From Candidatus Woesearchaeota archaeon (GTDB taxonomy: Archaea > Nanobdellota > Nanobdellia > Woesearchaeales > GW2011-AR15), in the NCBI GenBank assembly GCA_016928835.1, contig JAFGJW010000005.1:37815-101814 (forward strand): a DNA stretch of 64,000 nucleotides, given 5' to 3'. Under the pieces are notes generated by a model. That model did not search any database, was not told the DNA's origin, and saw only the letters and a program-made list of their open reading frames with translations. Below are positions 31,519 to 59,733 of the stretch, piece after piece (the stretch's first letter is position 1; each line of letters opens with the position of its first letter). The position numbers were made by a program, and so were the translations under genes.

Positions 31519-34500
31519 TATAGATAATCTGCTGAAAAATACTTTTGTAGCCTTGCTTATTGTACTGTCTATACTCTCCTTATTAATTGTCCAGGATTAT
31601 GTTGCATACGTAGGTTACCATGAAGCAGAAGCAGGCCAGATAACAGAGCTAATAGTTGAAGAGATATCGCCTGCTTGGTACTGGAACGGGATATATGGAA
31701 TAATTATCATGGCGCCTTCGATTAACAGCACCTGGTATGTAGAGGCTTCAAATGCAGGCATGGACAATCTTAACCCTATAGTGCAGTGCCTTGAACCTGG
31801 GATAGAGCATGAAGTCTACGCTTCTTTGGTAAATTCAGCAAACATAAGCTGGAATACTATAACAAATGCTTCGCCAGAGATGGTTGATACGTGGCTTGGT
31901 ATTCCTCTTAATCACAGCACTTCAGCAGTAAATACCTTTACTGAGACAATTACAGTTGAAGTTGGCAACAATACTATCTCAAATGTTCCTGCTGTTTATA
32001 CCTATCAGTCAACAAACTGGTCCAGCACTGTCTTTGCTCATGGACTCCTTTGGGATGGGACTAATATAATAATAGTCTCAAAAGTCACAGAGGGATATCC
32101 TACAGGATTTAATAATAATCCACTTAATTACCAGATGTTTGTTCCTGTCCAGATAAACACTACCCCTATTTATTATATCTTTTCTGATCCCAGTGATGTC
32201 TGCCCAGCAGGTGAAGGAGAGTCGGTAGAGAAGGGAACTGTATATGGCTGGGTTACTGATAATGCAACTGGTGTGCCGCTGGAAAATGTAATGGTCTTCT
32301 TAGGCAGGGATTATGATGTTACCGATCAATATGGATATTATAATGTCTCAGAGATGGCTGGTGACTATAAGATAGTTGCCATTAAGATGGGTTACAACAA
32401 CTATGTTGGCAATGTGACTGTAATAGAAAACAATTATACAAACCATAACATATCAATGGTCCAGTATCAAGAGCCGCTAACAGGCACCGGGCCGGGAGTT
32501 GGTACAGGTGTAGGGCCTGGACAGACAAGAAAGACTGGTGAGGGCCCAGGCATTGGGCCAGGCATTGGACCTAGCATTGGTCCTTACCTAGAGAAGCCTG
32601 AGCAGATGGGTATAGACCATTTTGTCTCGCTTGACAGGCTGTATAAAAAAATAAGGCTTGGCAACTTCTTTATTGAACACCTTCTGATATACAGCTTCAG
32701 AGCAGAGCCGGCAAGGGTGAATGTGGATATCACTGGAAATGTGACAGAGATTTTGGAGATAGATAAAACACAGTTTGTTATTGAACAGAACCAATATGAT
32801 AATGTTACTATTACGGTTTTTGGTAGCAAAATAGGGACCTTCACCGGAAAGATACAAGTGTCAGGGGATTTTAATGACTCGCTGCCTGTTGAGATCATTG
32901 TAACAGACGAGGACAAACTGCCTGTTGAAGCTCTCCTAATGCAGCTTGAAGTTTTGTCAAGCAGACCTTATGCAGGTGATAAGTTCAAGTTCAGAATGAA
33001 TCTCCATAACTTACTAGTGGAAGAGAAATATAATGTCTCATTGCATTATTACATAAGAGGAGTTGAGTCATCGACTGCTAATAATACACTTTACCTTGGA
33101 AATGATACCGTGGAGCTGCTCACAGCAACTTCTTTGATTAAAGAGGTTGAACTGCCAGAAGACTGGGAAAAAGGGGATTATTTCTTAATCGTAGAAGCAT
33201 ACTATCTTGATTTGTATTCACAGGCATCTACAGTATTCACAATATTTGAACCAATCTACATGTATTCTGTGTTTGGTATAATGCCCTTGTGGAAGCTGCT
33301 CTTGATTTTGCTTGGACTTACTTTACTAATATTAACGGTTATCATAGTCCGGACACGCATGGAAGCAAAAAAGAGATTCCATGCAAAAGTTGAATACAAC
33401 CTGCTTCCAAAAAAAGGTCCAAGATCGATTTATATTGGAAAGATAGCAGAGACTGAAAGAGATACATTCTTCGACATGGACAAGCTTACCGTGCACACAA
33501 TAGTAGCAGGTTCGACTGGAGGCGGTAAAACTATCTCAGCTCAAGTAATAGTGGAGGAATGTTTGATGAGGGATGTGTCAGTTGTTGTGTTTGATCCAAC
33601 AGCACAATGGACCGGCATGTTAAGAAAATGCTCAGATGAGAAGATGATGTCGTTCTATGCCAGATTTCACCTGACAAAAAAAGATTCCAGAGCTTTTAAT
33701 GGGAACATAAGAGCAATTAAGAATCCGAGAGAAAGGATTGATTTGATGAAATATTGGAAGCCTGGAGAAATACATGTTTTCACGTTGAGCACACTTGACC
33801 CTAAGGATATCGATATCTTTGTCGCAAATACTGTTAGAGAGGTCTTCCATTCAAACCTTCAGGAATTCCGTGGGTTAAGAATGCTCATGGTTTATGACGA
33901 GGTCCATAGATTGCTCCCAAAATTCGGAGGTTCTGGAGAGGGCTTTATCCAGATAGAGAGAGCATGCAGGGAATTTAGAAAATGGGGTATAGGTGTACTG
34001 CTTGTGTCCCAGGTACTCGCAGATTTCGTTGGTCAGATTAAGGCAAATATAAACACAGAAGTACAGATGAAGACAAGAGATGAGGGTGATCTTAAGAGGA
34101 TAGAAACCAAGTATGGTAAGGCTTATATCCAGGAACTGGTTAAGGCGCCAGTCGGCTCTGGCATGGTGCAAAACTCTGCCTGGAACAGAGGCAAGCCGTA
34201 TTATGTTACCTTTAGACCTATCCTCCATAGTGTGAAAAGACTTGGTGATGAAGAACTTGACAAATACAACAAGTACAATAATATGGTCGATGATATTGAT
34301 TATCAGCTTGAGCAACTTGAACAGGAAGGTGTTGATATTTTTGACCTTAAGCTTGAACTTAAGCTGGCACGAGATAAGATAAAATCTGGCAACTTCAACA
34401 TGGTTGATATATACCTTGAAGGATTAAAACCAAGAGTTGAGAAGCACTGGCAGACTCTTGGCAAAAAACCTCAAAAGAGAGAGGTTGAATTAATATCAGA

Positions 34501-35467
34501 GCAGGAACTTAGAGAATCCTTGCAGGCTGCAAAACAATCAAGAGAGCAATTTGAGAAAGCAAGTGATGAAGGCGCAGATGTTAAGGAAAAGAAAAAGGAA
34601 GGGCCTCTTGGCTTTAACCAGGATGTTGCCCCTGACAAAATCTTGAAGCTGTCTAATGGTATGCTTGTCATTAATATGAAAAGCCTCTATGATGAGATAG
34701 CGGCAATGAAAAAAGAGGATTTTGAGCAGCATGTGAGCCAGGAAAAAAATGATTTTTCTGACTGGATACGAAATGCTATAAAAAACATAAAGCTTGCTGA
34801 TGTTGCAGACCAGATTATTACAAAGGAAGACTATTTGAGCTTTCTTGAACTTGCAGAGAAGGGAAAAGAGAAGGAATTCAAAATCACAACTCCGAGAGAA
34901 AAACCTTTGGCTAAAAAAGAGCAGCCTAAAGTTGAGCAGCCAGCACAGGAGAGACCAAAACAGGAGCAGCCAGAGCAGGCACAGGAAAAAGAAAAACCTG
35001 AAAAAGCAGCTGAAGAACAGGTACAGAAACAGACTGAGCCTGCTCCTGCTGTTCAGGAGGCACCTGAAAAAAGAGAAGCTGAACAAAAAGAGCAGCTTCA
35101 ACCACAAACCACTGGGCAGCCGGCAGCTATTGGACAGGGAGAACAGGCATCAGCTGGAGCTCTTGGTTTCAATGATGATGTTGCTCCAGAAAAATTCCTT
35201 TTGCTTTCCAACGGCATGCTTGTAGTGAGCCTCAAGAGCCTTAGTGATGAGATAAATAATATGAGTGATGATGATTTCGCACAGCATGTTAATGACCAAA
35301 AAAATGAATTCGCCGACTGGATAAAAGATGCAACAAACAATGCAAAACTGGCAAAAATAGCAGGAGAGGTTAAAACAAAAAATGAATTTGCCAGGCTGCT
35401 TTCACTAGCTGGGCAGAATAAAGAAGATGAGTTTAAAAAAGAGGAGGCAATTGAAAAACAGAATTAG
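31508..35467 (+). CDS. Single-pass membrane protein: extracellular beta-rich domains fused to a cytoplasmic HerA/VirB4-like (DUF87-type) ATPase and two DUF5752-like repeats
   Basis: Signal/anchor, extracellular domain, carboxypeptidase-regulatory-like domain, GPG linker, Ig-like domains, TM near 33280-33350. Walker A GSTGGGKT (33509-33532), FDPT, Walker B YDEVHR, RKWG..SQ. GGAG RBS before ATG 31508. Confidence 0.85.
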   Translation: MKNNIDNLLKNTFVALLIVLSILSLLIVQDYVAYVGYHEAEAGQITELIVEEISPAWYWNGIYGIIIMAPSINSTWYVEASNAGMDNLNPIVQCLEPGIEHEVYASLVNSANISWNTITNASPEMVDTWLGIPLNHSTSAVNTFTETITVEVGNNTISNVPAVYTYQSTNWSSTVFAHGLLWDGTNIIIVSKVTEGYPTGFNNNPLNYQMFVPVQINTTPIYYIFSDPSDVCPAGEGESVEKGTVYGWVTDNATGVPLENVMVFLGRDYDVTDQYGYYNVSEMAGDYKIVAIKMGYNNYVGNVTVIENNYTNHNISMVQYQEPLTGTGPGVGTGVGPGQTRKTGEGPGIGPGIGPSIGPYLEKPEQMGIDHFVSLDRLYKKIRLGNFFIEHLLIYSFRAEPARVNVDITGNVTEILEIDKTQFVIEQNQYDNVTITVFGSKIGTFTGKIQVSGDFNDSLPVEIIVTDEDKLPVEALLMQLEVLSSRPYAGDKFKFRMNLHNLLVEEKYNVSLHYYIRGVESSTANNTLYLGNDTVELLTATSLIKEVELPEDWEKGDYFLIVEAYYLDLYSQASTVFTIFEPIYMYSVFGIMPLWKLLLILLGLTLLILTVIIVRTRMEAKKRFHAKVEYNLLPKKGPRSIYIGKIAETERDTFFDMDKLTVHTIVAGSTGGGKTISAQVIVEECLMRDVSVVVFDPTAQWTGMLRKCSDEKMMSFYARFHLTKKDSRAFNGNIRAIKNPRERIDLMKYWKPGEIHVFTLSTLDPKDIDIFVANTVREVFHSNLQEFRGLRMLMVYDEVHRLLPKFGGSGEGFIQIERACREFRKWGIGVLLVSQVLADFVGQIKANINTEVQMKTRDEGDLKRIETKYGKAYIQELVKAPVGSGMVQNSAWNRGKPYYVTFRPILHSVKRLGDEELDKYNKYNNMVDDIDYQLEQLEQEGVDIFDLKLELKLARDKIKSGNFNMVDIYLEGLKPRVEKHWQTLGKKPQKREVELISEQELRESLQAAKQSREQFEKASDEGADVKEKKKEGPLGFNQDVAPDKILKLSNGMLVINMKSLYDEIAAMKKEDFEQHVSQEKNDFSDWIRNAIKNIKLADVADQIITKEDYLSFLELAEKGKEKEFKITTPREKPLAKKEQPKVEQPAQERPKQEQPEQAQEKEKPEKAAEEQVQKQTEPAPAVQEAPEKREAEQKEQLQPQTTGQPAAIGQGEQASAGALGFNDDVAPEKFLLLSNGMLVVSLKSLSDEINNMSDDDFAQHVNDQKNEFADWIKDATNNAKLAKIAGEVKTKNEFARLLSLAGQNKEDEFKKEEAIEKQN

Positions 35468-35487
35468 CAGATAATTACAAAATCAAA

Positions 35488-35715
35488 ATGTTTGAAAGAT
35501 ATATGGAGATATGCACAAAGAGGAGGACTCACCTTATCAATGTACTTGAGGGCAATACCCAAGAAATTGATCCATGCACTCAGCACAAATTATACGGTGC
35601 AATAAATGAGATTGGGTTCATTATTGATGCACTTCACTATTATGAAGAAAAAAACTCAAATAATGGTAAAGAACATGGTATTAAGGAAGAGCAGGTAGAC
35701 AATGGCACAAACTGA
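35488..35715 (+). CDS. Hypothetical small protein
   Basis: 75-aa ATG ORF in the operon, overlapping the next gene. QHKLYGAINEI motif. Confidence 0.6.
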   Translation: MFERYMEICTKRRTHLINVLEGNTQEIDPCTQHKLYGAINEIGFIIDALHYYEEKNSNNGKEHGIKEEQVDNGTN

Positions 35716-36607
35716 TTCAAATACAAGCATTAAGGAGATTGGTGTGGATAAATACTTTCGCTTCCAAGATGGGCAGATTGCGAAAAATCCAGTTGAATTG
35801 CTCCATATACTACCTAATTTAAACCCGTCAGTATTTGACTTCCACTTGAATCAAAATAAGAATGATTTTGCAAACTGGGTTGAGGATGTCTTTAATAATC
35901 ATGGGCTTGGCAAGGAAATGCGTTCTGTTACATCTAAACCTGAATTGATTGCAGTGTTAGGTAAGTATTTCGACAAAAAAGAAGAAGAAGTGCCGGAGCA
36001 GCCGCAACAGGAAATAGAAAAAAAAGCAACAGAACAACATGATAAGATAGAAAATAATAATGCAGCATATGAGAGCCCTGAGACAAATAATCCTGCAAAA
36101 GAGGACATACAAGTAAAATCTGCGGACTCTGTTGGACAACCTGGGCCAGAAACAGTGGATAATACTGATAATAGTAATACAAGTAATGAACAAACTTCAG
36201 AAGTTCCTCCAGTTAAGGAAAATACTGCGAAATCAGCACCAAAGCTTGATATAAACAGAATTGACAAGATAAAAGAATCAATCCACTATCCGCCAATTGA
36301 GAAAGCGAGTTATGAGCAGGTTCTGTCTCCTGACAGCCTTGCTAAAATGTATGAAGACACCCACTCAAAACTATATTCCCGTTGCAGTGAATTAAGGAAA
36401 AGCGGGAAAGATACTAGACTTGCAGAACTAATGCTTATGAGGATTAAACCAAGGATCAAACTTTTCCGGGCAACACTTGGCAAAAAGGATTCACACTATG
36501 TGGAACAGCTCATAGAGGACGCAAGAGAAGAAATCAATCATATTAACTCATTAGATGAAAATACTCCCAAAGAGCAAAATGCAGAACCAACAAAAGAAGA
36601 AATGTAA
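35702..36607 (+). CDS. DUF5752-like domain protein with acidic linker and helical C-domain
   Basis: N-terminal YFRFQDGQ..KN..EL...FDFHLNQNKNDFANWVEDVF, homologous to the two repeats in the upstream ATPase. Confidence 0.75.
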   Translation: MAQTDSNTSIKEIGVDKYFRFQDGQIAKNPVELLHILPNLNPSVFDFHLNQNKNDFANWVEDVFNNHGLGKEMRSVTSKPELIAVLGKYFDKKEEEVPEQPQQEIEKKATEQHDKIENNNAAYESPETNNPAKEDIQVKSADSVGQPGPETVDNTDNSNTSNEQTSEVPPVKENTAKSAPKLDINRIDKIKESIHYPPIEKASYEQVLSPDSLAKMYEDTHSKLYSRCSELRKSGKDTRLAELMLMRIKPRIKLFRATLGKKDSHYVEQLIEDAREEINHINSLDENTPKEQNAEPTKEEM

Positions 36608-36653
36608 AGTTTTATAAAAATAGAGGAAATAACAAAATAAAAAGAGGTGTAGT

Positions 36654-37922
36654 ATGGGGCTTTTTAAAAAATACAAGCGGATAGAAGATCAGGAGCAGGA
36701 AGAGGCTATCCAAAGCGACCCTGAGCATAAAAAAGAAGATGCCCCAGCAAAGCCAGATGCAAACCTAGCTACTTCTAGATTATCTGCTGAATTTACTAGG
36801 CTCAAAGCCCAATTTGAACAATTCTCTGAGCTAAGGAAGGTAATTAATGAGAGATTCACCAGGATAAACGAGCAGGTTGGTGAGCTTAGAGGGATGATAA
36901 TGGATACCAATAGGGGCATCCAGGACATGGAAGTAAAGACTGTGAAGGCAGTTGACCTTGTTGAAGCAGTCCAGCCTGATAAGTTAATGGTGGAAGTAAG
37001 AAAGCAGGATGCTAAAATAGAGGCATTGAAGGCAAACCTTGAAAGCAACGAGGCTATGATGAAATCCATCCTGGATCAGTTGAAGGAACTGAGACATCAA
37101 ATTACTGTTTTTCGCGGGCTTGATGAAGTTATTAAGCTAAATGAAGAAGTAAAAAAGGAACTATTCAATATTAAGAAGGTACAGGCTACAGTTGAAAGAC
37201 ACTCGGACAAGATTGAGGGAATCTTTGTTGAGTCGCAGAAACGTTTTCAGGAATTTGAAAAGATTTCTGACCGGATAAAGGAGACAGAAAAGCAGCTCAA
37301 GACAGTCTCTCAACAAAGTGATCAAAACAAAGTGAAAATACCTTCTTTGGCTACCAAAAAAGAGGTTGAAAATCTAATCACCAAACTAAATGATTTTGAG
37401 AAACATGTTGGCAATGTCATCGACCTTCTGACAAGAAGAGCAAATGAGCTGCCAAAAGAAGTTAATGAAAGATTTGCCAAACTTGAACAAAGCTTGAACA
37501 ATGTCTTCCAGAATAAATTACGAAAAGCAGACAAAACCAATAGGATACTTGATACTATTGAGAAGCGCGCTCCAAAGATTGCAGCAGAACTGCGGCTGTC
37601 AGAAGTATTAGATAAACAGCAACAGACAGCAGAGCAACAAGTTGAGCCTAAAAAAGAAAAACCAGCTGCCAAGTCACCAGAGCAAGTGCCTGTAAAAACA
37701 GCATCTTCAGAACCAGCATTAGTTGGAAAGGAGGGAGGAACTTCACAAGAGGCTGCAACAGGAATCTCCTCAGGTGAGCCAACAAAAGAGATAAAACCCG
37801 AAGAAGCAAAAGAGAAAAAAGGAATCTTTGGCAAAATTTTCAGCAAACAGAATAATAATAAGCCTAAAGACCAAACTAAAGAAACACAAGATCAATCTGA
37901 GAAACCTGAGCAAGCGGAATAG
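36654..37922 (+). CDS. Long coiled-coil protein with possible amphipathic ends
   Basis: Heptad pattern over about 260 aa. MGLFKK N-terminus and KKGIFGKIFSK near the C-terminus. GAGGTG RBS. Confidence 0.75.
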   Translation: MGLFKKYKRIEDQEQEEAIQSDPEHKKEDAPAKPDANLATSRLSAEFTRLKAQFEQFSELRKVINERFTRINEQVGELRGMIMDTNRGIQDMEVKTVKAVDLVEAVQPDKLMVEVRKQDAKIEALKANLESNEAMMKSILDQLKELRHQITVFRGLDEVIKLNEEVKKELFNIKKVQATVERHSDKIEGIFVESQKRFQEFEKISDRIKETEKQLKTVSQQSDQNKVKIPSLATKKEVENLITKLNDFEKHVGNVIDLLTRRANELPKEVNERFAKLEQSLNNVFQNKLRKADKTNRILDTIEKRAPKIAAELRLSEVLDKQQQTAEQQVEPKKEKPAAKSPEQVPVKTASSEPALVGKEGGTSQEAATGISSGEPTKEIKPEEAKEKKGIFGKIFSKQNNNKPKDQTKETQDQSEKPEQAE

Positions 37923-38071
37923 ACTAATCCAATTTTTACTTCTCCGATCCTTATATTTTTCCTGATAGATTATTTCTCCTATATCAATTATAACATATTT
38001 ATCCAATATAATTGTTTATTATCCTGTTATGATAGCAAAGTTCTTAAATATATCTGTTCACGGATTATTTT

Positions 38072-38998
38072 ATGGGGTTTGAGGATATTACTGATTTAAT
38101 TAAATCAACCAGACTCCATCGAACTCTGACTGGTCTTTGTGCAATAATGGTCCCTGTCTCTATTGCTAATTCAATAACAAAAGAGATATTTTTTCTTGGC
38201 CTAAGCGGAATCCTGATATATGCGGCAGCAGGTATCCATAATGCAAAAAGAGATAGTGATTATGCACTACCTTCATACTATAAAATAGTTATAGCACTAA
38301 TCTTGGTTCTTGCATTGTCAATTGCATTTTCAAATAAAATCATACTAATTACAATTTTATTATATACTATATTGGGTTACGTCTACAACAGCTACTCTAG
38401 ATATGTTTTATTTGGAGATGTGACTCTGCTTAGCATAACTCACCATACTATCCCGACAGTTGCTTCCTCAATCCTGCTTGGTTTAAGATCTGCAATAATT
38501 GTCAAACTCAGTGTTTATATGTTTGTCACATTTTGGTTCTTGATACATTTAAAAAACCTTAAAGATACAAGAGAAGACAAAGACAGAGGTTACAAGACTC
38601 TCACAACCGAATTTAAAAATGGCCGTGAATGGACATTGTTCTGCTATGAGATAGGCTTTGCATCAATTGCTTTAGCTTATTTTCTCTTCGGTTTTGGAAT
38701 AAAATATATTTTTTTTTTATTAATAATCTATATTCTAAAGAATCATATTGTACACACTGCTCTCTTTCATAGAGAAAAAGAGTCACTAAATTACATGAGG
38801 TTTATGGTTCTGTTCTTTTTAATTGGGTTTGTATCTGAGTATGCAACAAGTGCTGTTATATATCTTATCTCAGGAGTCATTTTCTCATTGTACACTATCT
38901 TCCTTATTAATGACATTAAGCCAGATCTACTAAACCTAAGCTACAAATTGCAGCACTTCAAACTGATTACAAGGGAAAAGGCAAGCAGGCATGAATGA
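38072..38998 (+). CDS. UbiA-superfamily prenyltransferase (divergent)
   Basis: About 9 TM. First motif degenerate (HNAKRDSD), YN after TM4, second motif KNLKDTREDKDRGYKTL. Confidence 0.75.
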   Translation: MGFEDITDLIKSTRLHRTLTGLCAIMVPVSIANSITKEIFFLGLSGILIYAAAGIHNAKRDSDYALPSYYKIVIALILVLALSIAFSNKIILITILLYTILGYVYNSYSRYVLFGDVTLLSITHHTIPTVASSILLGLRSAIIVKLSVYMFVTFWFLIHLKNLKDTREDKDRGYKTLTTEFKNGREWTLFCYEIGFASIALAYFLFGFGIKYIFFLLIIYILKNHIVHTALFHREKESLNYMRFMVLFFLIGFVSEYATSAVIYLISGVIFSLYTIFLINDIKPDLLNLSYKLQHFKLITREKASRHE

Positions 38999-41190: not shown

Positions 41191-41198
41191 TCCAACTA

Positions 41199-41927: not shown

Positions 41928-41929
41928 TT

Positions 41930-43169: not shown

Positions 43170-43170
43170 A

Positions 43171-52100: not shown

Positions 52101-55100
52101 CTGGATATCAAGTACAACGGAGCAGACAAACAGACAGTTTAGAGCAAGAGGTTCAACAGCAAACAATAGGGGTACAGGTATAGTAGCTTCATGGTACGAG
52201 CTTTACAAAGGAATAGTACCAATGTTTGCGGGTTCTCCTTTCTATACCATAGACCAAAACCCTATGAGCTATTTAAATACAAGTTGCCTTGCAGATATGA
52301 TTGCCGGAGACACGTGTCAGGTATCGTGGCAAGTTAATGCAACAGGCCAATTGGGCTCCACTTGGGAATTTTTTGTGGATTACAACACTACAGAATATGA
52401 TGCTCAAGTAAGTGATGCCAGAACTTCATCAGTATATATTACTATTACAGATGCGTCACTGGTACCGCCCCAGGTGTATTTGCTGAATCCAGATGACGCG
52501 ACCCAGACCAATAATGCGTCTATTGAATTTGAATGTCATGCAACAGATAACATTGGTCTTCAAAATTTGAGTTTTTATTTGACTACAACAGATACCCTTC
52601 AATTTAATGATAGTGTACCTGCTTCAGGCACTGAAACCAATGTCACATTCAACAAAACGCTTGAGGAAGGATGGTATAAATGGAATTGTTGGGCATTTGA
52701 CACAGATGGTAATGATGATTGGGGTGCAACTAACAGAACACTAATCATCGATTTGACCAAACCATGGATAAATCTTACCTATCCTACTCCAAATGCAACC
52801 TTTATTGTACAGGATATCATCTTTACGTGGGTTCCGATTGACAATTTTGGAAACCCAATTATATGTAACCTGACAATAAATGCCATTGATTACAGTGTAA
52901 ATTATACTGACACAGGTATAAGCGTAAACAATAATACTGAAGGTAGCAGCCCTATAATGGGAATCTTTCCTAACACTTATCTCTGGTATGTTACCTGCAT
53001 CGATGAGGCTGGGAATGTAAATGTATCTGAGACAAGGAACTTTACCATATCTGACCTTCCGCCAACAGTTGAGCTGATTACTCAAGATGACTACTGGACA
53101 AATCAGCACAATATAACCTTGTATTACAATGCTACAGACAATGAGGGGATTAACCATTCAGATCTTTATATAAATGGTGCCTATAACAAATCTAATTATA
53201 CTGTTGAAATGGAAGAACCACAATGGTTTGACCTCTTCAATCTTGCTGAGGGCAGGTACAATTGGACTGTAAATGTTACAGATGTAGGCAATTTAACTGA
53301 CCAGGCGCCTTGGCAAACCTTCTACATTGATTATACTGACCCCATTATTATTTTGAATTATCCAAACGAATCTATTAGTATTAACAGCAGTTCAATTGAT
53401 GTAAATTTCACGGCAATTGACAACCTTGACCCAACTCTTGTGTGTAACATTACAATAAATGGAACAGTCAATGAATCAGGTATAAATGCAGATAGCAACC
53501 AGTCAACAATACAGACTATCTCTGGATTACGAGACGGGATAAGTTTTATGAATATAACTTGTATAGACGAAGCTGGAAATATTAATACAAGTATGACCGT
53601 GGCAATTAATGTAAGTGCACCCCCAACAATTGAACTTAACTATCCAGACCAAAATCACTCTCAAAAACTAAATTCAATCTATCTGAATTATACTCCTTCG
53701 GACAATTCCGGCTTAGATCATTGCGATTTGCTAATAAACGGAGGATATAATGATACTGAACCAGCCCCAAATAATAATGAAATGAACTACTTTTATCTTG
53801 AAGACATGAAGGAGGGGGCATATACCTGGGCAATTAATTGTACAGATATATCAGGCTATCATAATATATCTAAAACAAGAACCTTTTTTATTGACTTCAC
53901 CGCACCAAACATAACACTTATTATACCTCCGCCAGGCGATATAGTCACAAGTTCGATTGTAGTCTTCAATTACACTGTAGCTGATAATCTTGCTGAGGAT
54001 ATGATGTGTAATCTGACACTGAATGGTGCTGTTAATATATCCAATATTCCCTCTCCAAATAATACTGTAGTAAGTAGGAACATAACCATATTTGAGGAGA
54101 CGACTCACTATTGGAATGTAACCTGCTGGGATGGTGCAGGAAACATCAATGTATCAGTAACCTGGAATTTTTCGGTATTAGTGCCTCCAGCAGTTGATCT
54201 TATATCTCCTGATGATAATTATGTAACCAACATAAGCGAGATTAACTTTACCTACTACTCTTTTGATTCAAGCGGCCTGCAGAATTCAACACTAATTATC
54301 AATGGCCAACCAAACAAGTCTGATCCTGCACCAAATAATGATGCTTACAATTTCTTTAATCTGACTGGGCTGGCAGACGGGAGATACAACTGGACTGTCC
54401 AGGTATTTGATGACGATAATCTCTCAACAACACCTGATGTAAAATGGTTTACAATTGATACTGCACCACCAACTGTACAGATTATTTTTCCAACAAGCTA
54501 TTATACTGTAACTACTAATAACTTTAGTCTTCAATTTAATGCTAGCGATAATTTAGATGACTATCTGAGATGTCACATATATTTCAATGAACAGCTTCTA
54601 TCTGGAAATGTAAGTGTCCAGAACGGATTTGTTCATTCGGAATCAATGCTTAAGAATGACGGTTACTACAACTGGAGCGTAATCTGTTTTGATGAGATAA
54701 ATAATTCAGCATATTCGGGTCTAATCAACTTTTCTGTTGAAGCGCCGCCTAATGTTAGTCTGGATGCTCCGCCGAACATGACAAGGACAAGTAATACCTC
54801 TTTGACCTTTTATTTCACACCTCACGACGATTTTGGGCTGCAAAATTGTACTCTAATTCTGGACAATGAATTAAATGGTTCAGTTATTGACCCTGCTAGT
54901 GATGTGCAGCAGTCCATTTCAGTGGATAATCTTATTGGTGGGATGCATAATTGGACAGTTAGATGCATTGATGCGCCACCAGATCTCAATGAATATGCTC
55001 CTCCTGTCAAACATTTTATTATTGACCTAACAGGGCCCGCAATTGACTTAATATTCCCTGAAGAGTATGGAGTATACAATTATGATGATATCAATTTCAC

Positions 55101-58100
55101 ATGGAATGCGACAGATATGTGGGGTACAGCATTAATATGTAATCTTACAATTGATGAACGGGTTAATGTGACAAATATCTCAGCAACATCAGGTTTGCTT
55201 GCTAATCAAACAGTCTTTAATCTAAGTCAGGGTAATCATAACTGGTCAATTACATGCTGGGATGATTTCAACAATACTAACTCAACAGGACTTGTTAATT
55301 TCACTATCAATGCACCTGATCTTACATTAAATAATACACATATAGGCTTTAATAATACTAATCCGGATATAAATGAGACTCTTACAATAAATGCGTCAAT
55401 ATATAACCTTGGTGGTGCCACTGCATTAAATGTGCCAATTGATTTCTGGGATGGACTGCCGGAGTCTGGAGTATATATTGGAACAGATATCTTGGCCTCT
55501 GTCTCTCCAGGATTTTCTGAACTTGCCGAGATAGAATGGAATATTACTGGAGGCTATCACACTATTTGGGTTATTGTGAATTATACAGGAGTCGAGCTGA
55601 ATACCTCAAATAACAATGCATCAGTAAATATCTCAGTATTAAGATCAATGATTAACTCTCCGCTAAACAACAGCTATTCAAATGCACTCCAACCTACTTT
55701 TAATTTTACACTACAGGATTATACATACGACACAATAAATTACTCGGTCCTTGTGGACGGTGCTCCTAATGGTCAGACAGGACAGGTCACAGATAATGTT
55801 TCACAAACAGTCAATGTACCCTTGTCTGCTGGACAGCATTATGTTCAGATAAGAGCAACTGATTATCTTGGTAGGATAAAAGATTCAGAAAGAGTCTATA
55901 TTATTGTTGATAGGACAGACCCCTCTTTAAATTATATATGGCCCACCCCACCTGATAATTGGGTTCAGGCAGTAACAAATGTCACAATAAATGTGTCAAT
56001 AGAAGAAGATAATCCTGATACTCTTATTCTCTATTGGGCTGGATTTGTCAATGAGACTAGAAAGGACTATGGAAACTTGTCAAATTACACACTATATAAT
56101 CTTTCGGAGGGAGTTTACACATATTATGTGTGGGCCAATGACTCTGCTACCAATTTTGCTCAGACCAGTGAAAGAACAGTGCGGATTGATTTAAAAGAGC
56201 CAACAATCAACTTGGAATCCCCTGATAATGAAGATACATGGACCACCAGTAATGTTGTGGAATTTTATTACAATGTGTCTGACGCATCACAGTATCTAAA
56301 CTGTTCACTTCTCATCAATGGGACAGTGAACGACACTTCCTATAATGTGGAGCCTTATCTAAGCCAGAATTTTGTTATGTATCTTAGGAATGGAAAATAT
56401 ACTTGGGCTATTAACTGTTCAGATCAACTGGGTAGAGTGAATATTTCTGAGACAAGGAATCTTACTGTTAATGCTGAGCTCACAAACTGGAGCAGGATAT
56501 GGTATGAGCGGCATACAAATGACTGGACATCTACTGCTTTCATTAGCCTCATGCCGCAGCCAGATGCTGTTGAAAACAACATCAACACCTCAATAGGAAA
56601 TCAGACATTGTACACGATGGCAAATGCCACTTCTCCCTACTTTGGAGGCAATGGTGTCTTAATACCTATGAACACAGCAGTCGAGTTCTGGGGCACCTTC
56701 CTAAGCACGGGAAGATGGGGTTATGTAACCTGGAAGGTTGTTCTATCTAACTCAACTGGAGAGTATCTAATTGCACAGAGCGGCAATGATGATGATACAT
56801 ATACAGGCAGCAACTACATCTATCCCCCTGCGAACAACAGACGTACGCTCAATGGCACTGATTTTACAGCCAAGACTTGGATCCTAGGACCGTTGGATAG
56901 GATACGTTTGATAGTAAATATATTCAATGATGATACCTCTCAACCAGAAGAGTTCATTCATTACTGGGATGAATATATTGGCAGGTCATGGAGTTATGTT
57001 GAATTTGACCAGTTCATTACAGTGGGCAGTCTTGTTGTTAACTTAACTGAGCCTAGCTCAGACCTTGTTATTCCGCCTAATATGACATATAATCATACCT
57101 GCTTAGTTAATTGTAGTGTGGGCACATGCATTGACACTTATGTATACGCTCTGTACAATTCATCAGGCATTAACTGGACAAATATCTCTTCATCAGGCAA
57201 TCTGGTGCTTAATGGCACACAACAGAACCCACTATTTTTAGGTAATATTACTGAAGCACAGAATGTGACCTTCATAATTAGGGGAGTCCTTGCATCTGAA
57301 AACAATATCCGCTGCTATGCTGAATCTCTCTCCTCCACAGCCTACAGCCCACAGATAAGAAAAGTAACTGTAAATGATACTATCCCACCGAATGTAACAT
57401 TAAGCTCTCCTGAAAATGGTTACTGGCTCGATTACAGAAATGTCACATTCTATTTTGACGCCTCTGATAATGTTGGATTGGGGAACTGCAGTATATTCAT
57501 TGATGGACTCTGGAACGCAACCAAGAGCGGTTCTGAACTAATAAACAATGGCCTTAATAATTTTACTGTGGATAATATACCCGAAGGCTACCATAACTGG
57601 ACAGTGGAGTGCAATGATACCAACACAAACAAAGGAACTACAGACACCTGGAATTTTACTATTGATTTGACTAAGCCGACAATTAATCTCATATACCCGG
57701 GAGATACTGCAAATATAACTTCACAGCCATTTGACCTTAATTTTACAGTGATTGACAACCTTGATACTAATCTTACCTGCAATCTCACTATTGATGGAGT
57801 ATTATATAGATCAAATTTCAGTGCAATCAACAACACTGTTGCGAGAACATCCGTCACTTTAACTGAGGAGGATACACATTATTGGAACGTAACCTGTTGG
57901 GATGGAGAAAGCCTTTCAAACATTAATAATGTAAATTATAGTAAAACAAGGAGCTTCAACTTGTTTATACCTCCAAATATCACTTTGGTAAGTCCTGATG
58001 ATAATAACTGGACTGGCAATGAAAATGTGACCTTTTTCTTCAATGTCTCAGACAGCACAGGCATACATAATTGTACAATTATTATCAATGAGCAGAAAAA

Positions 58101-59733
58101 TACTTCAAAGGATTCCTCTCAGATTATTAATGGTGGTACAAACAACCTCACAGTAAACAGACTCAATGGTACAGTAATATGGAGTATTGAGTGCTATGAC
58201 AATACCAGCCAGCTGATGTATAACAGATCTTCCAATAGAACGCTCAATGTTGATGTTGATGGACCATTACCTATAATAACTACAGCTAATCAATCATGGT
58301 TTAATACAACAACCCCAAGTATCAATTTCTATATAATTGATAATATGGATCTTGACTCAATTAACTATAGTTTTTTTGTAGATGCTGTGAAAAACACTAA
58401 TGGAACTATAGGTAATAATACACCTACATCTGATAACCTTACTATTCTGGCAGATGGGCCACATATAGTGCTGATTGAGGCTTATGATAATGTAGGTAAC
58501 TACAGGAATTCATCCCCTATCACTATTTATGTTGATACAATAAAACCAAGCATAAGGCTTAATGAGCCTACCAACGGGGGAACCACAGTAACAAATATAG
58601 TAACATTCAATTATACTCCAATTGACGCACTTTCATGGAATCTAACCTGTAACCTGACACTTGACAACACTATTAGAAACACATCTGTAATTCTCAATGA
58701 TACCAATTTTACTGTGACTATTGGAGGCTTAACAGCAGGAATCCATTGGTGGAATGTTACATGCATGGATTTGGCTGGAAATATAAATACCAGTGAAACA
58801 TGGAATTTTACAATACCTCTGCCAGATTTTACCCTTAACTCAACACATATTGTGTTCAATACAAGTGCTCCGCAGGAAAATAAAAACCTTACAATCAATG
58901 CAACTGTATTTAATATCGGTCAGTCAGATGCTGAGAATGTTGTCATACAGTTCTATGAAGGACACTATAGTCTGGGAAATCAGATTAACGGTAATTTCAC
59001 AAGGAATATATCCAAAGGGGCTAATGCAACAGTAAGTGTGAATTGGACGCCAACCACTACAGGCAGCTTTGATATTTATGTTATTGTTGATCCTCCTCTG
59101 GCAACTAATGGATCAATTGCAGAAGAGAATGAATCAAACAATTATGCACATAATCAGTTGGGAGTATCCAGCAATCACGTCTTGTATGGGAACCTCAGCG
59201 GAGTTCTTTATATTCAGGACCTGACCAATCAGACACTCTATGAATGGGACCCAACCAACTTCAGTGGAAGCAATATCTATGCGGCAGATTATGATGCACA
59301 GATTGACTGGCAAAAGTTGCATCCTCTTGGAAGAAGTACTGCAAATGTTAGTGAATTTGACGATTTCCATCAGCTTGATACACAATTATTCATGGAAAAC
59401 AACTCGGATGATATCAATGCTACATGGACCTTTAACAACTCTCCAAGACAGACAGATTCATTCACAGTGTTTAAAAAGAGCATTTCTCTTGTGCCAATTG
59501 TGAACTCAACAAACAATACCAATTTTATCACTGGCATAATGTGGGATACCTCTGACCCCAACCTTGGCGGAAGATTTAATGGTTCGCAGGATGTTGTCTT
59601 TGTTACCAGGATAAATGAGAATACTACAGGCTCATTGGGATTATATGATTTTGAGATGAAAATTCCTGCTAATGTCAGGCTTCACAAGACACCAGACCAA
59701 ATTACTGTCAAGTTATATGTTGAAATAAAATGA
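43171..59733 (+). CDS. Giant (5520 aa) secreted adhesin-like glycoprotein
   Basis: Signal peptide, MG2-like, DUF2341-like (WWDTNWNKRRSF), jelly-roll-like inserts, many Cys-stapled Ig-like repeats (NCSL.ING...YNW.V.C.D), two CARDB-like domains, dense N-x-S/T. No C-terminal TM. Confidence 0.88.
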   Translation: MLTPHTLRTNTKTVLLILLFNILTLTTFSEDRLIQLDKYQYLPFEKVNINLNIDIQDTHRLVIKNQGKEYQLFDPKQYTYFIPSAEGRYVVELYSSTELMASQEFMVGEVPESEQNESDQTHEEEELLENTSIMNLAIYTNKPSYSVNEPVQILTSYEGGFKNLILTVHCKDIAYRFMNEPRSGIMFVPKEPGEYVIKVTDPLGRLVAEVQFNVEGIVETAPEGISNSVSEIGVVEDVVDAEPEDNEDTEEVSYSLVKIKNSNNELFDSKAKIYGQTQTILGSSNVSSSTYTMEIQLDNNNGPKIIFKDIKISDSILLNYEQLDQGIVRQGNLASKNIKKAYAIDPSTLEFSSGELRLIAEGTELFKCKNYDFLSRSCYGSWDKIMDIVPGQEYSIILGPEDPAYAEAGVASINTVKSIYHPNETAGIMIVVLDKYGHLVSNAEVNLTITDPNNSSFYFSTNANTISETQTGIYSLNFTQTEHEGNYLMKIIAYGANTNQTMQSYFNVQEHYEFDILRNTPITIDPWKYRLVSSILIVSNNYTGNFSFAEVLPLGFGIESAAGAILTSDESNIYLTWNNLANNSLIVYSSYIPLITPALYEIGPSIITYGTSSFYEARAWYLAVDPSQAQMFKETFPNADGTWNGDGNGDTAQDMTGWYAWQEGGDMAVQVSDLDNAAGSLPPSGGNHLTFEDCDNGFSNTQCLAAININLSACDSDTVISWYWQHDDTDGFPANEGHQVHYSTDSTTGQDGTWTLMEEQIDPTENTWFRTSYSVPSSANVEGFWVRFRARMNVDGEHVYIDDVEANCTIDYEPNVTLEYPPQNYLNSTSDPVNVVFNCSAKDDFDVYNISLYITNAYNQSFSFNNSCNVATQNGSCNWTLSLHNGNYTWNCLAYDNRSQHDWGDSNRSLLIDDAYPNTPVVNSYECEINSAGNWQLCNNLAYGSTLRQVRVNCTVQGANVTNVTISLFNIPDSNYLLDNYTSDNSTGYWQLDIDDILIEDSGDFNISIICLSSRGIEKANSTFWSIPWGTLEGVLLNPTSSRDVIQNTTFNFSSRVSCIGGECGDVNATAGYKGEWWDTNWNKRRSFNLTSPDNTERINEIVRVNVSGFGGSLSSCDDELRIISGLTSEQFAEIPFTVESGDNSTWCYVRFLANVSSTTPTHYYAYYNNIAATNPGYSAVKISYVDNSNFSATTDWTYYETEPDDTGEYTTAQSYSPTQSYNIYTGTAATQGNYAEIFQDIVLPCHNCSLTVSAYNRLESAGTTENAFYAQIIMDTTTLSSVGTPPDGSSPIDWTMRSNTYTPSSSVERLHLRFLSDVTFASGWGQRDVFWDNVEIAPVNPINNVVTIGSEENLVVPISTTPSAAPFWTSSSNPYTPLTRPCLGNLKSGESCDTTWIVNATGAINSKWDLLVQYAPTTYASYISNNITSHVEITIVDYIRPEISNIQCKEIAQAWGDCSDVQFNDQLDAIRAQCIYDVGDPIQNMTFKLTNINDNYVYFDSVTADNSSGYWLLNISDITIRDSGDFNLYATCTANPTGVDDINWSIPFGFLTLGLLPFTNQNRNVTQNQFFTFRAELNCNGGECGDSNASLWYKNADTSLQVIEFIGFEDDAVEEAKWIDDAAPSGVLSVEAGADWNPRTGSYALAMTGNIDPALDYWYRNISLAGYEDVSIEMYSSTEDTESADDYIMYYWNGSEYSFMWEDLNRDSGSQTVWSQHITPIPYSEVTNDFRIRVGWSTSSAAETMILDDVNVSGYKLYYWNLLNTTSGDLPLYTIDSNPLYPLDTSCLHNMSGGDSCTLEWQVNATGSISSVWNMIVWSEPLNYSQNVSRINSSIINLTIVNNALPHVVDISLTPDYPEDFNDLVCFFTVEDPDVFDDLYVNVTWFRDNISFESNIINVTSGIEYSDIMESSNTSINDEWYCQVTPFDNVGAGNTTNSSVVTILSDAPPLIHYIQCQEDNMTWGDCSIIGFSDYLTQVRVNCTDTQKVTNATFSLINIPDNYEFFNATTSYQQGDYFILNISDILIQDSGEFNLHVVCRDNASNERYDFADWTVPWGTLVASLVSPSANVSVSKGVFFTWTSSVLCSGGECGSINATLDPEALKGNEPGINIINPQSYPMLGGNWTVLFNTKGKSDLTITVNEDTAWSNVEDKGDLKFMDLRCGQDIVDYEWIHTGDQQSVFVPGYECSDVSYETSRVLTSGRHNLVFDYGPNRVYAHNLVSYVHSDGSQGTSFTFNISSPDNRLVVIVADDESTGTYLTGVTVDGKSCDLVNTADNPVGAGNHMEMWYCDEDHLGSSSGDVTIAITGADPGWAIHAHLYTGVDQNGPYDNQTDSTSQSQNEILPGAIDIPLNGLLVFGAANGQSGSYNDADWDTNPTEGTDDGLSPEIEMTEVTDGPNPASAVLATAYWISTISDQTDRLFRARGSTANNRGTGIIASWKLAQLSKGVIPNTPGSTPFWTSTANPHGYSVSSCLENMTDGDICTTSWEVNATGGLNTVWEFFAYYNASTYTGYIETNYTPSIYITIVNNTLPNITALDLLPIFPPNYVNLNCTFTIYDPDFDNDLTVNVTWFRNNITFESNVYSVTSGQQYIDIMESSNTSTNEEWHCQVAPFDNLGPGTPMNSSHRIVLDNAPPQVTGVLCQLENTTWIDCTNIVFGQNLTAVRANCTDDFKVENVSFWFFNLEDNYVYFNNLSSYNYSKQFVFNNTDVHILDSGNFYLNVTCYDNSSLWDRQVINWSIPWGTLSASLVDPDSDTSVQRNAFFTFTSSITCLGGECGDVNAILDPLSYVRSSGTTGTSFSFDIGSPQDRLVVIVADDESTGTYLTGATVDGKSCDLVNTADNSIGTGNHMEMWYCDENHLGSSSGSVTVAIQGGNAGWAVHAHLYTDIDQHGPYDSQTDSTSQSQNEILPGVVDIPADGLLVFGAGNGMSGTYNDADWDTNPTEIADDGLSPEIEMTEVTDGPNPDSAVLATAYWISSTTEQTNRQFRARGSTANNRGTGIVASWYELYKGIVPMFAGSPFYTIDQNPMSYLNTSCLADMIAGDTCQVSWQVNATGQLGSTWEFFVDYNTTEYDAQVSDARTSSVYITITDASLVPPQVYLLNPDDATQTNNASIEFECHATDNIGLQNLSFYLTTTDTLQFNDSVPASGTETNVTFNKTLEEGWYKWNCWAFDTDGNDDWGATNRTLIIDLTKPWINLTYPTPNATFIVQDIIFTWVPIDNFGNPIICNLTINAIDYSVNYTDTGISVNNNTEGSSPIMGIFPNTYLWYVTCIDEAGNVNVSETRNFTISDLPPTVELITQDDYWTNQHNITLYYNATDNEGINHSDLYINGAYNKSNYTVEMEEPQWFDLFNLAEGRYNWTVNVTDVGNLTDQAPWQTFYIDYTDPIIILNYPNESISINSSSIDVNFTAIDNLDPTLVCNITINGTVNESGINADSNQSTIQTISGLRDGISFMNITCIDEAGNINTSMTVAINVSAPPTIELNYPDQNHSQKLNSIYLNYTPSDNSGLDHCDLLINGGYNDTEPAPNNNEMNYFYLEDMKEGAYTWAINCTDISGYHNISKTRTFFIDFTAPNITLIIPPPGDIVTSSIVVFNYTVADNLAEDMMCNLTLNGAVNISNIPSPNNTVVSRNITIFEETTHYWNVTCWDGAGNINVSVTWNFSVLVPPAVDLISPDDNYVTNISEINFTYYSFDSSGLQNSTLIINGQPNKSDPAPNNDAYNFFNLTGLADGRYNWTVQVFDDDNLSTTPDVKWFTIDTAPPTVQIIFPTSYYTVTTNNFSLQFNASDNLDDYLRCHIYFNEQLLSGNVSVQNGFVHSESMLKNDGYYNWSVICFDEINNSAYSGLINFSVEAPPNVSLDAPPNMTRTSNTSLTFYFTPHDDFGLQNCTLILDNELNGSVIDPASDVQQSISVDNLIGGMHNWTVRCIDAPPDLNEYAPPVKHFIIDLTGPAIDLIFPEEYGVYNYDDINFTWNATDMWGTALICNLTIDERVNVTNISATSGLLANQTVFNLSQGNHNWSITCWDDFNNTNSTGLVNFTINAPDLTLNNTHIGFNNTNPDINETLTINASIYNLGGATALNVPIDFWDGLPESGVYIGTDILASVSPGFSELAEIEWNITGGYHTIWVIVNYTGVELNTSNNNASVNISVLRSMINSPLNNSYSNALQPTFNFTLQDYTYDTINYSVLVDGAPNGQTGQVTDNVSQTVNVPLSAGQHYVQIRATDYLGRIKDSERVYIIVDRTDPSLNYIWPTPPDNWVQAVTNVTINVSIEEDNPDTLILYWAGFVNETRKDYGNLSNYTLYNLSEGVYTYYVWANDSATNFAQTSERTVRIDLKEPTINLESPDNEDTWTTSNVVEFYYNVSDASQYLNCSLLINGTVNDTSYNVEPYLSQNFVMYLRNGKYTWAINCSDQLGRVNISETRNLTVNAELTNWSRIWYERHTNDWTSTAFISLMPQPDAVENNINTSIGNQTLYTMANATSPYFGGNGVLIPMNTAVEFWGTFLSTGRWGYVTWKVVLSNSTGEYLIAQSGNDDDTYTGSNYIYPPANNRRTLNGTDFTAKTWILGPLDRIRLIVNIFNDDTSQPEEFIHYWDEYIGRSWSYVEFDQFITVGSLVVNLTEPSSDLVIPPNMTYNHTCLVNCSVGTCIDTYVYALYNSSGINWTNISSSGNLVLNGTQQNPLFLGNITEAQNVTFIIRGVLASENNIRCYAESLSSTAYSPQIRKVTVNDTIPPNVTLSSPENGYWLDYRNVTFYFDASDNVGLGNCSIFIDGLWNATKSGSELINNGLNNFTVDNIPEGYHNWTVECNDTNTNKGTTDTWNFTIDLTKPTINLIYPGDTANITSQPFDLNFTVIDNLDTNLTCNLTIDGVLYRSNFSAINNTVARTSVTLTEEDTHYWNVTCWDGESLSNINNVNYSKTRSFNLFIPPNITLVSPDDNNWTGNENVTFFFNVSDSTGIHNCTIIINEQKNTSKDSSQIINGGTNNLTVNRLNGTVIWSIECYDNTSQLMYNRSSNRTLNVDVDGPLPIITTANQSWFNTTTPSINFYIIDNMDLDSINYSFFVDAVKNTNGTIGNNTPTSDNLTILADGPHIVLIEAYDNVGNYRNSSPITIYVDTIKPSIRLNEPTNGGTTVTNIVTFNYTPIDALSWNLTCNLTLDNTIRNTSVILNDTNFTVTIGGLTAGIHWWNVTCMDLAGNINTSETWNFTIPLPDFTLNSTHIVFNTSAPQENKNLTINATVFNIGQSDAENVVIQFYEGHYSLGNQINGNFTRNISKGANATVSVNWTPTTTGSFDIYVIVDPPLATNGSIAEENESNNYAHNQLGVSSNHVLYGNLSGVLYIQDLTNQTLYEWDPTNFSGSNIYAADYDAQIDWQKLHPLGRSTANVSEFDDFHQLDTQLFMENNSDDINATWTFNNSPRQTDSFTVFKKSISLVPIVNSTNNTNFITGIMWDTSDPNLGGRFNGSQDVVFVTRINENTTGSLGLYDFEMKIPANVRLHKTPDQITVKLYVEIK
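49831..52194 (+). repeat. Intragenic duplication of a ~220-aa domain (49831-50493 and 51535-52194)
   Basis: RLVVIVADDESTGTYLTG...NHMEMWYCDE...DDGLSPEIEMTEVTDGPNP...RARGSTANNRGTG occurs twice, with long identical nucleotide runs. Confidence 0.95.

Follow-up and report, generated by a model that had tools for sequence, protein, structure and literature searches.

A domain shared by a membrane ATPase and a giant adhesin

The window analysed here is a stretch of 64,000 nucleotides from a Candidatus Woesearchaeota archaeon (contig JAFGJW010000005.1 of assembly GCA_016928835.1), and two of its genes, both on the forward strand, are the subject of this report. The first (31499–35467) encodes a membrane HerA-type ATPase of 1322 residues with a likely ATG start at 31508, and the second (43171–59733) a giant adhesin-like protein of 5520 residues. 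A preliminary description of this DNA had proposed that the first extracellular domain of the ATPase and the C-terminal end of the adhesin are the same domain, and that strand donation between them makes the adhesin the tip and the ATPase the base of a pilus-like structure. The data presented below join the two domains and point to small secreted subunits of the same family as the possible link between them.

The ATPase is read as a transmembrane segment (TM1), about 550 extracellular residues, a second transmembrane segment (TM2), a cytoplasmic ATPase and a tail. TM1, or signal-anchor (31526–31615, +), spans residues 10–39 by hydropathy scan and appears as a helix over residues 2–32 in the AlphaFold2 (AF2) model. 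The first extracellular domain (31622–32190, +) is a strand-bearing pilin-like domain of what we call the ATPase type, located on profile and model evidence. Close to its start lies a candidate donor strand, AGQITELIV (31631–31657, +), which has a conserved motif, is unpaired in the monomer model and is paired in a complex model (see below). A putative extracellular CarboxypepD_reg-like beta-sandwich follows (32243–32458, +), its match to Pfam PF13715 (3.7e-5) being under the curated cut-off. TM2 (33263–33361, +; residues 589–621, hydropathy scan) leads into the P-loop ATPase core (33371–34378, +), in which the Walker A and B motifs GSTGGGKT and VYDEVH are read. The core scores 37.1 bits against Pfam DUF87/HerA (PF01935; curated cut-off 23.2), and a profile of eight orthologs matched HerA-family entries of the PDB at 2.3e-10 to 2.4e-6, with FtsK reached only at 4e-3. 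On its sequence, we assign the core to the HerA clade of the HerA/FtsK superfamily. The cytoplasmic tail (34379–35464, +) contains two DUF5752-like repeats; the match to PF19027 (E 0.0012) is under the cut-off, and the same family is precomputed on the ATPase orthologs P0126 and P0127. The NCBIfam models for CedD and TraD gave weak local matches around the Walker A region. Assignment of the protein as a CedB/CedD DNA-import equivalog was rejected, as NF053655 reached 27 bits against a cut-off of 600 and covered residues 644–708 only.

The adhesin starts with a signal, continues with many immunoglobulin (Ig)-like and CARDB-type repeats, and revealed no transmembrane-like segment in a hydropathy scan. 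A CARDB domain (58822–59148, +; Pfam CARDB 8.9e-13) stands just ahead of the adhesin-type pilin-like domain (59170–59733, +), which comprises the last 187 residues and has no strand motif. The two segments lie where the preliminary description had placed them, at the N-terminal extracellular domain of the ATPase and at the extreme C-terminus of the adhesin.

Direct comparison of the ATPase segment with the adhesin segment by BLASTP gave 20% identity at E 0.98, no better than chance; a pairwise alignment alone is therefore insufficient, and profile tests were used instead. These were run on the 3240 stop-to-stop open reading frames (ORFs) of at least 80 residues in the assembly, which is 95% complete, and with alignments of 42 small proteins, 16 adhesin C-domains and 22 ATPase N-domains (A2, A4 and A5, respectively). 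Searching the whole assembly with the adhesin segment returned small open frames of 233–274 residues and a second adhesin on contig C5 (2277 residues, in an open frame of 2282) that ends in this C-terminal domain as well (1.8e-46). A hidden Markov model (HMM) built from five small paralogs alone retrieved the window adhesin (3.9e-8), the C5 adhesin (2.5e-7) and the ATPase (3.4e-6); the match after these had E 0.012. With the broader A2 profile, the ATPase N-domain was found at 1.4e-13 (positions 49–234 of 239), the window adhesin at 1.4e-12 (positions 74–238) and the C5 adhesin at 7.1e-11. Profile–profile comparison of A5 with A4 by hhalign, as the preliminary description had suggested for the two segments, gave a probability of 96.9% and E 1.8e-10 over 106 columns, with the matched blocks EVYAS../NIYAA.., SAVNTFT/DDINATWT, ISNVPAV/ISLVPIV, GLLWD/GIMWD, IIIVSKV/VVFVTRI and NYQMFVP/DFEMKIP. 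For A2 and A5 the values were 99.7% and E 1.6e-25 over 174 columns, the N-terminal strand included. Judged by these profiles, the ATPase and adhesin segments are copies of one extracellular domain. The significant profile similarity on which the preliminary description depended was obtained, and its reading of one domain in both proteins is borne out by all three lines, the five-paralog HMM, the A2 profile and hhalign. Its collinear alignment of the two segments stands in the blocks that hhalign recovered but fails as a direct BLASTP match.

The preliminary description had also named small exported archaeal proteins with the pattern AGxVTELxI..WQGYYG..YYFYVEL and proposed an HMM search of the genome for stand-alone copies of about 200 residues. 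Such proteins exist: the A2 consensus reads AGxVTxLxI..WQGYYG..YYFYVEL, and the search found five of them in this genome, each with a signal peptide, an AGNVTxLxI-like strand, WQGFYGN and a C-terminal YYFYVEL. In the databases, a small protein had 194 matches at E ≤ 1e-3. Among the matches listed (120 of 194), all are unnamed or labelled "hypothetical protein" and none has a Pfam domain; the organism names, where given, read Woesearchaeota, Nanoarchaeota, Nanoarchaeia, Pacearchaeota or "archaeon", that is, only DPANN. Pfam and NCBIfam scans of both segments and of two small paralogs yielded nothing significant, and the best match of the A2 profile to PDB sequences (E 0.71) was a leucine-rich repeat design and is regarded as noise. 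The domain is treated here as an undescribed family in which nothing known was recognised, and we leave fold novelty unclaimed.

Distribution of the family and of its N-terminal strand

The domain occurs in three principal forms. In the first, it makes up stand-alone secreted subunits of 220–280 residues, with a Sec-type signal and an N-terminal arm of about 40 residues that carries the strand ahead of the domain. Genomes contain 2–9 A2-profile matches, and the small subunits are often in tandem. In the second form, a copy devoid of the strand ends large surface proteins with CARDB, Ig-like, lectin-like or beta-helix bodies. This copy is at the C-terminal end in all nine database proteins (378–1771 residues) as well as in seven genome and locus copies, and giant open frames of 2501–4878 residues occur in relatives. 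In the third form, a strand-bearing copy is placed at the N-terminus of a membrane protein, right after the first transmembrane helix; in the group of genomes to which the present one belongs, this protein is the HerA-type ATPase with two TM segments. It sits at about residues 40–230 in most of the 150 representatives listed, in proteins of up to 1970 residues; among the same representatives, P0253 (3096 residues) has the ATPase-type domain at the C-terminus, and many shorter entries are probably fragments.

With the ATPase-type profile, matches at E ≤ 1e-3 were obtained in 348 representative clusters, and 146 of them reached ≤ 1e-10. Strong matches (E < 1e-19) were found in 26 of 61 related genomes, and in 21 of these they fall within open frames of 1197–1655 residues. 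In a sampling of the phylum that covered 201 high-quality genomes, the ATPase-type profile gave a match at E ≤ 1e-15 in 45, with small subunits among the matches at weaker scores; open frames of at least 1000 residues are present in 23 of the 45, and seven, all belonging to one family (f44), have a version of about 530–550 residues.

The strand itself follows the forms closely. All 42 small proteins and all 22 ATPases have, ahead of the domain, a motif of the type G-x-hydrophobic-T-x-hydrophobic-x-hydrophobic, which none of the 16 adhesin copies has. In the small proteins it reads A-x-A-G-N-V-T-x-L-x-I, with the glycine, the threonine and the three alternating hydrophobic positions each kept in 42/42. 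The ATPase version, A-x-(G/A)-G-x-I-(T/S)-E-(L/I/V)-x-(I/L/V), retains the glycine and the I/V position in 22/22 and T/S in 19/22. The strand lies about eight residues ahead of the invariant tryptophan of the first core strand. In adhesin-type copies, the profile match starts with the first core strand or shortly ahead of it, as seen in 9/9 database proteins and 5/5 genome loci. The extra N-terminal strand that the preliminary description noticed in the ATPase copy is thus real, as is its absence from the adhesin copy.

Several sequence details of the individual forms should be mentioned. Two cysteines are invariant in the small subunits (C116 and C161 in P0005) and likely form a disulfide; the adhesin-type copies are without them. 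ATPase-type copies have a single invariant cysteine, which belongs to a conserved insertion with the consensus CLEPGxxHE, located after the first and before the fourth strand; the acceptor edge of the ATPase-type domain itself might be capped by this insertion. Three adhesin-type proteins of about 735 residues (P0132, P0129 and P0130) show a second, weak small-subunit HMM match near the N-terminus (best independent E-value 1.6e-4) and may therefore hold two family domains in one chain. One ATPase-type N-domain match (G207:C46:8999-9691) contains an in-frame TAA and could represent a broken gene or an assembly error.

Monomer models were available for a small protein and for the N-terminus of the ATPase. 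The AF2 model of the small protein has a mean predicted local distance difference test (pLDDT) score of 91.3 and a predicted template-modelling score of 0.83, and DSSP assigns no strand at residues 28–67. In the ATPase model (pLDDT 89.1), the helix at residues 2–32 is followed by residues 33–58 with no strand and by the first strand at 59–64; the two blocks covering the candidate donor strand have mean pLDDT values of 53 (residues 31–40) and 65 (residues 41–50). Past the strand, the order of strands and helices is the same in both models. Folding back of the N-terminal strand onto its own domain, which the preliminary description had named as counting against its proposal, is seen in neither of them. 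Foldseek gave 0 matches for the small-protein model in the PDB at E ≤ 1e-3, and VIA-align in its wide mode found 0 of 48161 chains at Z ≥ 5 (best Z 2.8). A search of the ESM Atlas gave nothing beyond unnamed archaeal clusters belonging to this family, and the TM-score of its other structural rows was at most 0.30. The corresponding search with the ATPase N-terminal model peaked at Z 4.3 on residues 1–48, i.e. on the transmembrane helix, which dominates this search and makes it uninformative on the domain. Taken together, the model-based fold searches recognised no known family, and a missing match of this kind does not exclude an Ig-like pilin fold.

A complex was predicted from three chains, namely an adhesin C-domain (from A4), a small protein (residues 25–231, from A2) and an ATPase N-domain (from A5), with the latter as the scored partner. 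The interface score ipSAE was 0.70, 0.68 and 0.61 over three runs (median 0.68), and the best of three controls reached 0.00. The mark used for this score, a measure of model confidence, is reached by 58/80 solved complexes and 2/110 mismatched pairs, a calibration that is only rough for the present job with its own alignments and three chains. The runs share at least 95% of their contacts, and the partner pLDDT is at least 82. In the model, ATPase residues 1–18, comprising the strand and its flanks, contact small-protein residues 64–85. The register (small protein:ATPase 72:9, 73:10, 74:11 and 75:12) corresponds to parallel pairing with the first strand of the subunit, whose residues 71–75 pair with the ATPase strand; small-protein residues 27–38 and 201–230 also touch the ATPase domain. 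Contacts between the ATPase domain and the adhesin are few (adhesin residues 15–17 and 23). Contacts are reported for the ATPase partner and do not extend to the pair of small subunit and adhesin. As no similar complex or fold is present in the PDB, recall from a solved structure is unlikely.

In a control that kept the adhesin C-domain and the ATPase N-domain but had an unrelated protein in place of the small subunit, the score was 0.00; this lends no support to direct docking of ATPase and adhesin, and is not evidence against it either. Parallel pairing would be hard to achieve in cis over a linker of 7–8 residues, which favours a trans role, and the ATPase strand is predicted to act in trans by inserting into a small subunit. 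The coupling in trans put forward in the preliminary description is hence retained in the prediction (ipSAE 0.68), but with a different acceptor: the ATPase strand goes onto the small subunit and not onto the adhesin.

Gene linkage and neighbouring genes

Among the 61 related genomes, small subunits accompany the ATPase-type copy in every one of the 26 that have it; four others carry the family but no ATPase-type copy, and the remaining 31 contain neither. In one genus (g7), four genomes have both the ATPase-type copy and small subunits and two have neither. The most informative case is family f44, where a same-strand operon in 3/3 examined loci (L039:79-8273, L040:128-7324 and L041:139-6894) encodes, in this order, a strand-less adhesin, two successive subunits, a TM-anchored protein of 554–575 residues and no recognised family, and a base protein of 509–547 residues. 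The base protein has a signal and a strand-bearing ATPase-type N-domain, matches the N-terminus of the window ATPase by BLASTP at 1e-11, and has no ATPase. This suggests that the strand-bearing N-terminal module is the conserved element and that the HerA ATPase was added in the lineage studied here. The f44 TM-anchored protein was also compared with the 1164-residue surface protein of the window (see below) and is not similar to it (E 2.3). In the present genome, contig C5 carries the second adhesin followed by two small subunits, with PKD proteins and a KaiC-like ATPase with DUF5752 upstream. Within 12 kb of an adhesin-type match, a small subunit was found in 5/7 of the matches listed.

The window ATPase is part of a cassette. 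Upstream, a gene for a surface protein of 1164 residues (28024–31518, +), with a signal, PKD/PEGA-like domains (PKD_4 1.4e-12), a C-terminal TM segment and a cytoplasmic tail, overlaps the ATPase start by 20 nucleotides and is a conserved partner. Downstream follow genes for a cytoplasmic protein of 301 residues with a DUF5752-like motif (35702–36607, +) and for a coiled-coil protein of 422 residues (36654–37922, +); both are conserved partners, the latter with 43–63% identity in 7/7 loci. The order PKD protein, ATPase, 301-residue protein, 422-residue protein is kept in 6/7 related loci. The DUF5752-like motif (..KNDFxxWI..) was observed in four places: the ATPase tail (34301–35464), the 301-residue ORF of the cassette and two proteins of contig C5, a KaiC-like ATPase (L008:16106-18082, −; PF19027 4.8e-15) and a protein of 304 residues (L008:3845-4759, −). 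This shared motif may link the ATPase cassette and the adhesin/subunit locus of C5 on the cytoplasmic side. No paper in the literature search mentions DUF5752.

On the adhesin side, an ORF for a helix-turn-helix (HTH)-like protein of 194 residues (42585–43169, +; weak HTH_24 match) lies directly upstream of the adhesin gene, and a gene for a surface protein of 1450 residues with a C-terminal TM segment and coiled-coil tail (59730–63998, +) overlaps the adhesin stop and extends beyond the window end. Homologs of these neighbours, as of a KaiC-like protein encoded at 41199, are found within a few kb of the ATPase cassette in three loci: the HTH-like homolog 2.5 kb away in L035, those of the 1450-residue protein adjoining the cassette in L034 and L038, and the KaiC-like homologs near it in L034, L035 and L038. 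Between cassette and adhesin, three genes on the reverse strand (40087–42232) encode this KaiC/RecA-like protein of 242 residues and ORFs of 100 and 367 residues. The two are further parted by genes for a UbiA-type prenyltransferase and a flavin adenine dinucleotide-dependent geranylgeranyl-reductase-like protein (38072–40112), which is not so in the relatives examined; such genes are typical archaeal lipid genes. A winged-helix regulator gene directly upstream of subunits or adhesin recurs, with an ArsR-type gene (HTH_5 2.3e-10; L004:574-1170) before tandem subunits on contig C2 and the HTH-like 194-residue ORF before the giant adhesin.

A candidate fibre, competing explanations and known systems

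In the reading that we consider to have about an even chance of being correct (roughly 50%), the family forms a chaperone-free donor-strand fibre with the adhesin as tip, small subunits as shaft, and a HerA-type ATPase or its ATPase-less equivalent as base and anchor. The N-terminal strand of each subunit would run alongside the first beta-strand of its outer neighbour, in parallel orientation. The adhesin could only accept a strand and would therefore occupy the distal end, while the small proteins, each donor and acceptor, would build the shaft. The strand of the membrane protein would plug into the innermost subunit, tying the fibre, and with it the anchorless 5520-residue adhesin, to the cell. 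The placement of the bodies, with the acceptor-only domain C-terminal and the donor domain N-terminal, is what a polar fibre predicts. Homology, motif distribution, the rule of architectures, gene linkage and co-occurrence are observed, and insertion of the ATPase strand into the small subunit is predicted; that small subunits polymerise, that the adhesin has an acceptor site left open and that ATP hydrolysis plays any part are inferred. Judged by the f44 operon, the HerA ATPase appears to supplement the anchor rather than to form its core. The assignment of tip and base in the preliminary description is accordingly kept in part: strand distribution and the predicted trans pairing agree with it, but the ATPase is not the core of the anchor, given that the f44 base has none.

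A number of points weigh against such a fibre. Binding and filament formation are inferred from one structure-prediction job and from genomics. In the adhesins, the last CARDB strand is only 2–5 residues ahead of the first core strand, and in one adhesin the small-protein HMM aligns this CARDB strand to the strand positions; the adhesin domain could thus be completed in cis. The rule that tip proteins lack the strand is blurred by a fourth, rarer form, in which the full module including the arm (profile positions 25–239) is located at the C-terminus of large proteins, e.g. in L029 (a frame of 2360 residues), L030 (615 residues) and L031. The ATPase-type domain appears complete in itself, so its own acceptor edge would need to be filled, and the model names no filler. 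A HerA-type hexamer would show six domains, a poor fit to a single thin fibre. The strand starts about 4–5 residues past the TM-like segment (residue 39) or about ten past the modelled helix (residue 32), a spacing that implies tight geometry if TM1 stays uncleaved. Moreover, co-occurrence is overstated, since kin genomes are not independent, and in the present genome 8 kb separate the genes for ATPase and adhesin, while the small subunits are encoded on contigs other than that of the ATPase.

Some of these points fit other explanations. Strand-swap docking of small proteins and adhesins, singly or in small numbers, on the membrane ectodomain, giving a surface coat or receptor complex in place of a fibre, would also account for the trans-pairing prediction, which suits a heterodimer, and for six ectodomains per presumed hexamer, each of which could hold one partner; nor do the present data show self-polymerisation of the small subunit. 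We regard it as an unlikely alternative in view of the several tandem small paralogs (2–9 matches per genome), the presence of both donor strand and acceptor domain in each small subunit, as a polymer needs, and an f44 operon order resembling that of pilus operons. It is doubtful that ATPase and adhesin merely share a self-contained surface module, for instance a glycan-binding or structural one, with the strand used in cis and the two proteins uncoupled. Domain reuse is common in surface proteins, the two genes are not in one operon here, and flexible arms are a known weak point of AF2. Yet the strand is unpaired in both monomer models, the predicted parallel pairing would hardly be possible in cis over so short a linker, all 16 adhesin copies do without the strand, and the co-occurrence of the three forms is tight, down to a common operon.

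Cyclic strand swapping among six ATPase N-domains, closing an extracellular ring or collar such as a channel vestibule independent of the adhesin, has in its favour that HerA/FtsK-class ATPases, to which the PDB relatives belong, are established hexamers, and that each ATPase copy has both donor strand and acceptor domain. Still, the ATPase-less f44 base protein keeps the domain within a subunit/adhesin operon, and the small subunit is where the complex prediction, at high confidence, put the strand; ring closure seems distinctly improbable. Chance resemblance of two low-complexity N/T-rich segments would agree with the BLASTP result and with their N/S/T-rich composition, but it is refuted for practical purposes by independent profiles that join the segments at 1e-6 to 1e-13, by the hhalign E-value and by an alignment collinear across the whole domain. 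Beyond the donor-strand fibre itself, a speculative extension that we hold to be unlikely would have a hexameric pumping ATPase of the HerA/FtsK class covalently joined, via its own donor strand, to the adhesin-tipped fibre as a motor- or translocase-coupled pilus; DPANN episymbionts might thereby hold a host cell and perhaps transport a polymer, DNA or otherwise, through the membrane of their own cell, much as the HerA-clade ATPases CedB and CedD act next to Ced pili, and the subunit fold would be a new pilin fold.

In chaperone-usher pili of the Fim and Pap type, the pilin domain of the tip adhesin only accepts a strand, shaft subunits have an N-terminal extension, and there is a special last subunit. 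The motif distribution observed here corresponds to this scheme in that the donor strand is found on the proposed shaft subunits and not on the proposed tip adhesin domain, and the proposed fibre is alike in its logic of tip, shaft and base, a likeness partly covered in PMC9715654. The system nevertheless does not belong to this class. The PapD-like chaperone PF00345 and the usher PF00577 each gave 0 matches in the 95%-complete genome, the chaperone control being detected in E. coli, and no solved pilin was matched by fold. Further differences are that no outer membrane is present, no Ig-like fold was recognised and the predicted pairing is parallel.

Known archaeal filaments are nearer. In the threads of Sulfolobus acidocaldarius, the beta-rich subunit Saci_0406 is exported by Sec and its N-terminal strand complements the next subunit, the related neighbour Saci_0405 is proposed as end cap, no protein of the gene cluster is definitively assignable as chaperone or usher, and the available text names no machinery for thread assembly (PMC9715654). 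The present system would share the Sec-exported subunit, the N-terminal strand for the next subunit and the lack of chaperone and usher, but its two end subunits would be parts of larger proteins, a giant adhesin and a membrane ATPase. In sequence, the A2 profile found no match below E 0.7 in the PDB, threads included, and fold searches were without clear match. Archaeal bundling pili (AbpA, TasA-like) and cannulae (CanA) are likewise chaperone-free donor-strand polymers (PMC9245690, PMC12518558). No fold match to them was obtained, the Peptidase_M73/TasA family PF12389 gave 0 matches in the genome with no Pfam match on the small proteins, and the available part of PMC12518558 describes no adhesin-tipped or ATPase-based architecture for them. 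By analogy, the system seems closest in kind to these archaeal chaperone-free donor-strand filaments, i.e. threads, bundling pili and cannulae.

The proposed fibre also resembles the Pam pilus of the candidate phyla radiation, a donor-strand pilus of ultra-small episymbionts. This pilus has no trans-envelope machine but has membrane-tethered helpers, and it is held at the membrane by a last protein whose N-terminus enters a pilin (preprint PMC13278184). Pam differs in being bacterial and in having Ig-like two-domain pilins and Pap-like chaperones, a comparison made by description only (PMC13278184), and the word "ATPase" has 0 occurrences in that text. For the ATPase itself, the nearest functional analogues may be CedB and CedD, membrane HerA-clade ATPases that work with pili in DNA import of Sulfolobales (PMC11868833). 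A TM segment combined with a HerA-like P-loop ATPase is common to the window protein and to ATPases of the CedB/CedD/VirB4 type. Unlike CedB and CedD, the window ATPase has two TM segments around about 550 extracellular residues that include a pilin-like domain. Other predicted archaeal secretion systems are described in PMC6393860 and PMC5898192, the available parts of which do not mention HerA or FtsK. Our literature search found neither this family nor any fusion of a HerA-type ATPase with a strand-exchange pilin domain described, with supplements outside its scope (e.g. the synteny figures of PMC9715654, which possibly bear on ATPases at thread loci), and no donor-strand fibre system described for DPANN archaea.

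Donor-strand fibres as such are already known in archaea; what is new here is an unrecognised subunit family and a candidate base borne by an ATPase. One unannotated domain family supplies the candidate tip, shaft and base. In some cases this base is fused to a cytoplasmic HerA-type ATPase, a coupling not found described for any strand-exchange pilus in the literature search. The family is widespread (45 of 201 genomes, 348 clusters and 194 small-protein database matches), as found here in DPANN archaea only, and its carrier in the present case is a tiny symbiotic archaeon. If the fibre is real, it would account for the retention of giant surface proteins without an anchor by very small cells whose way of life depends on attachment.

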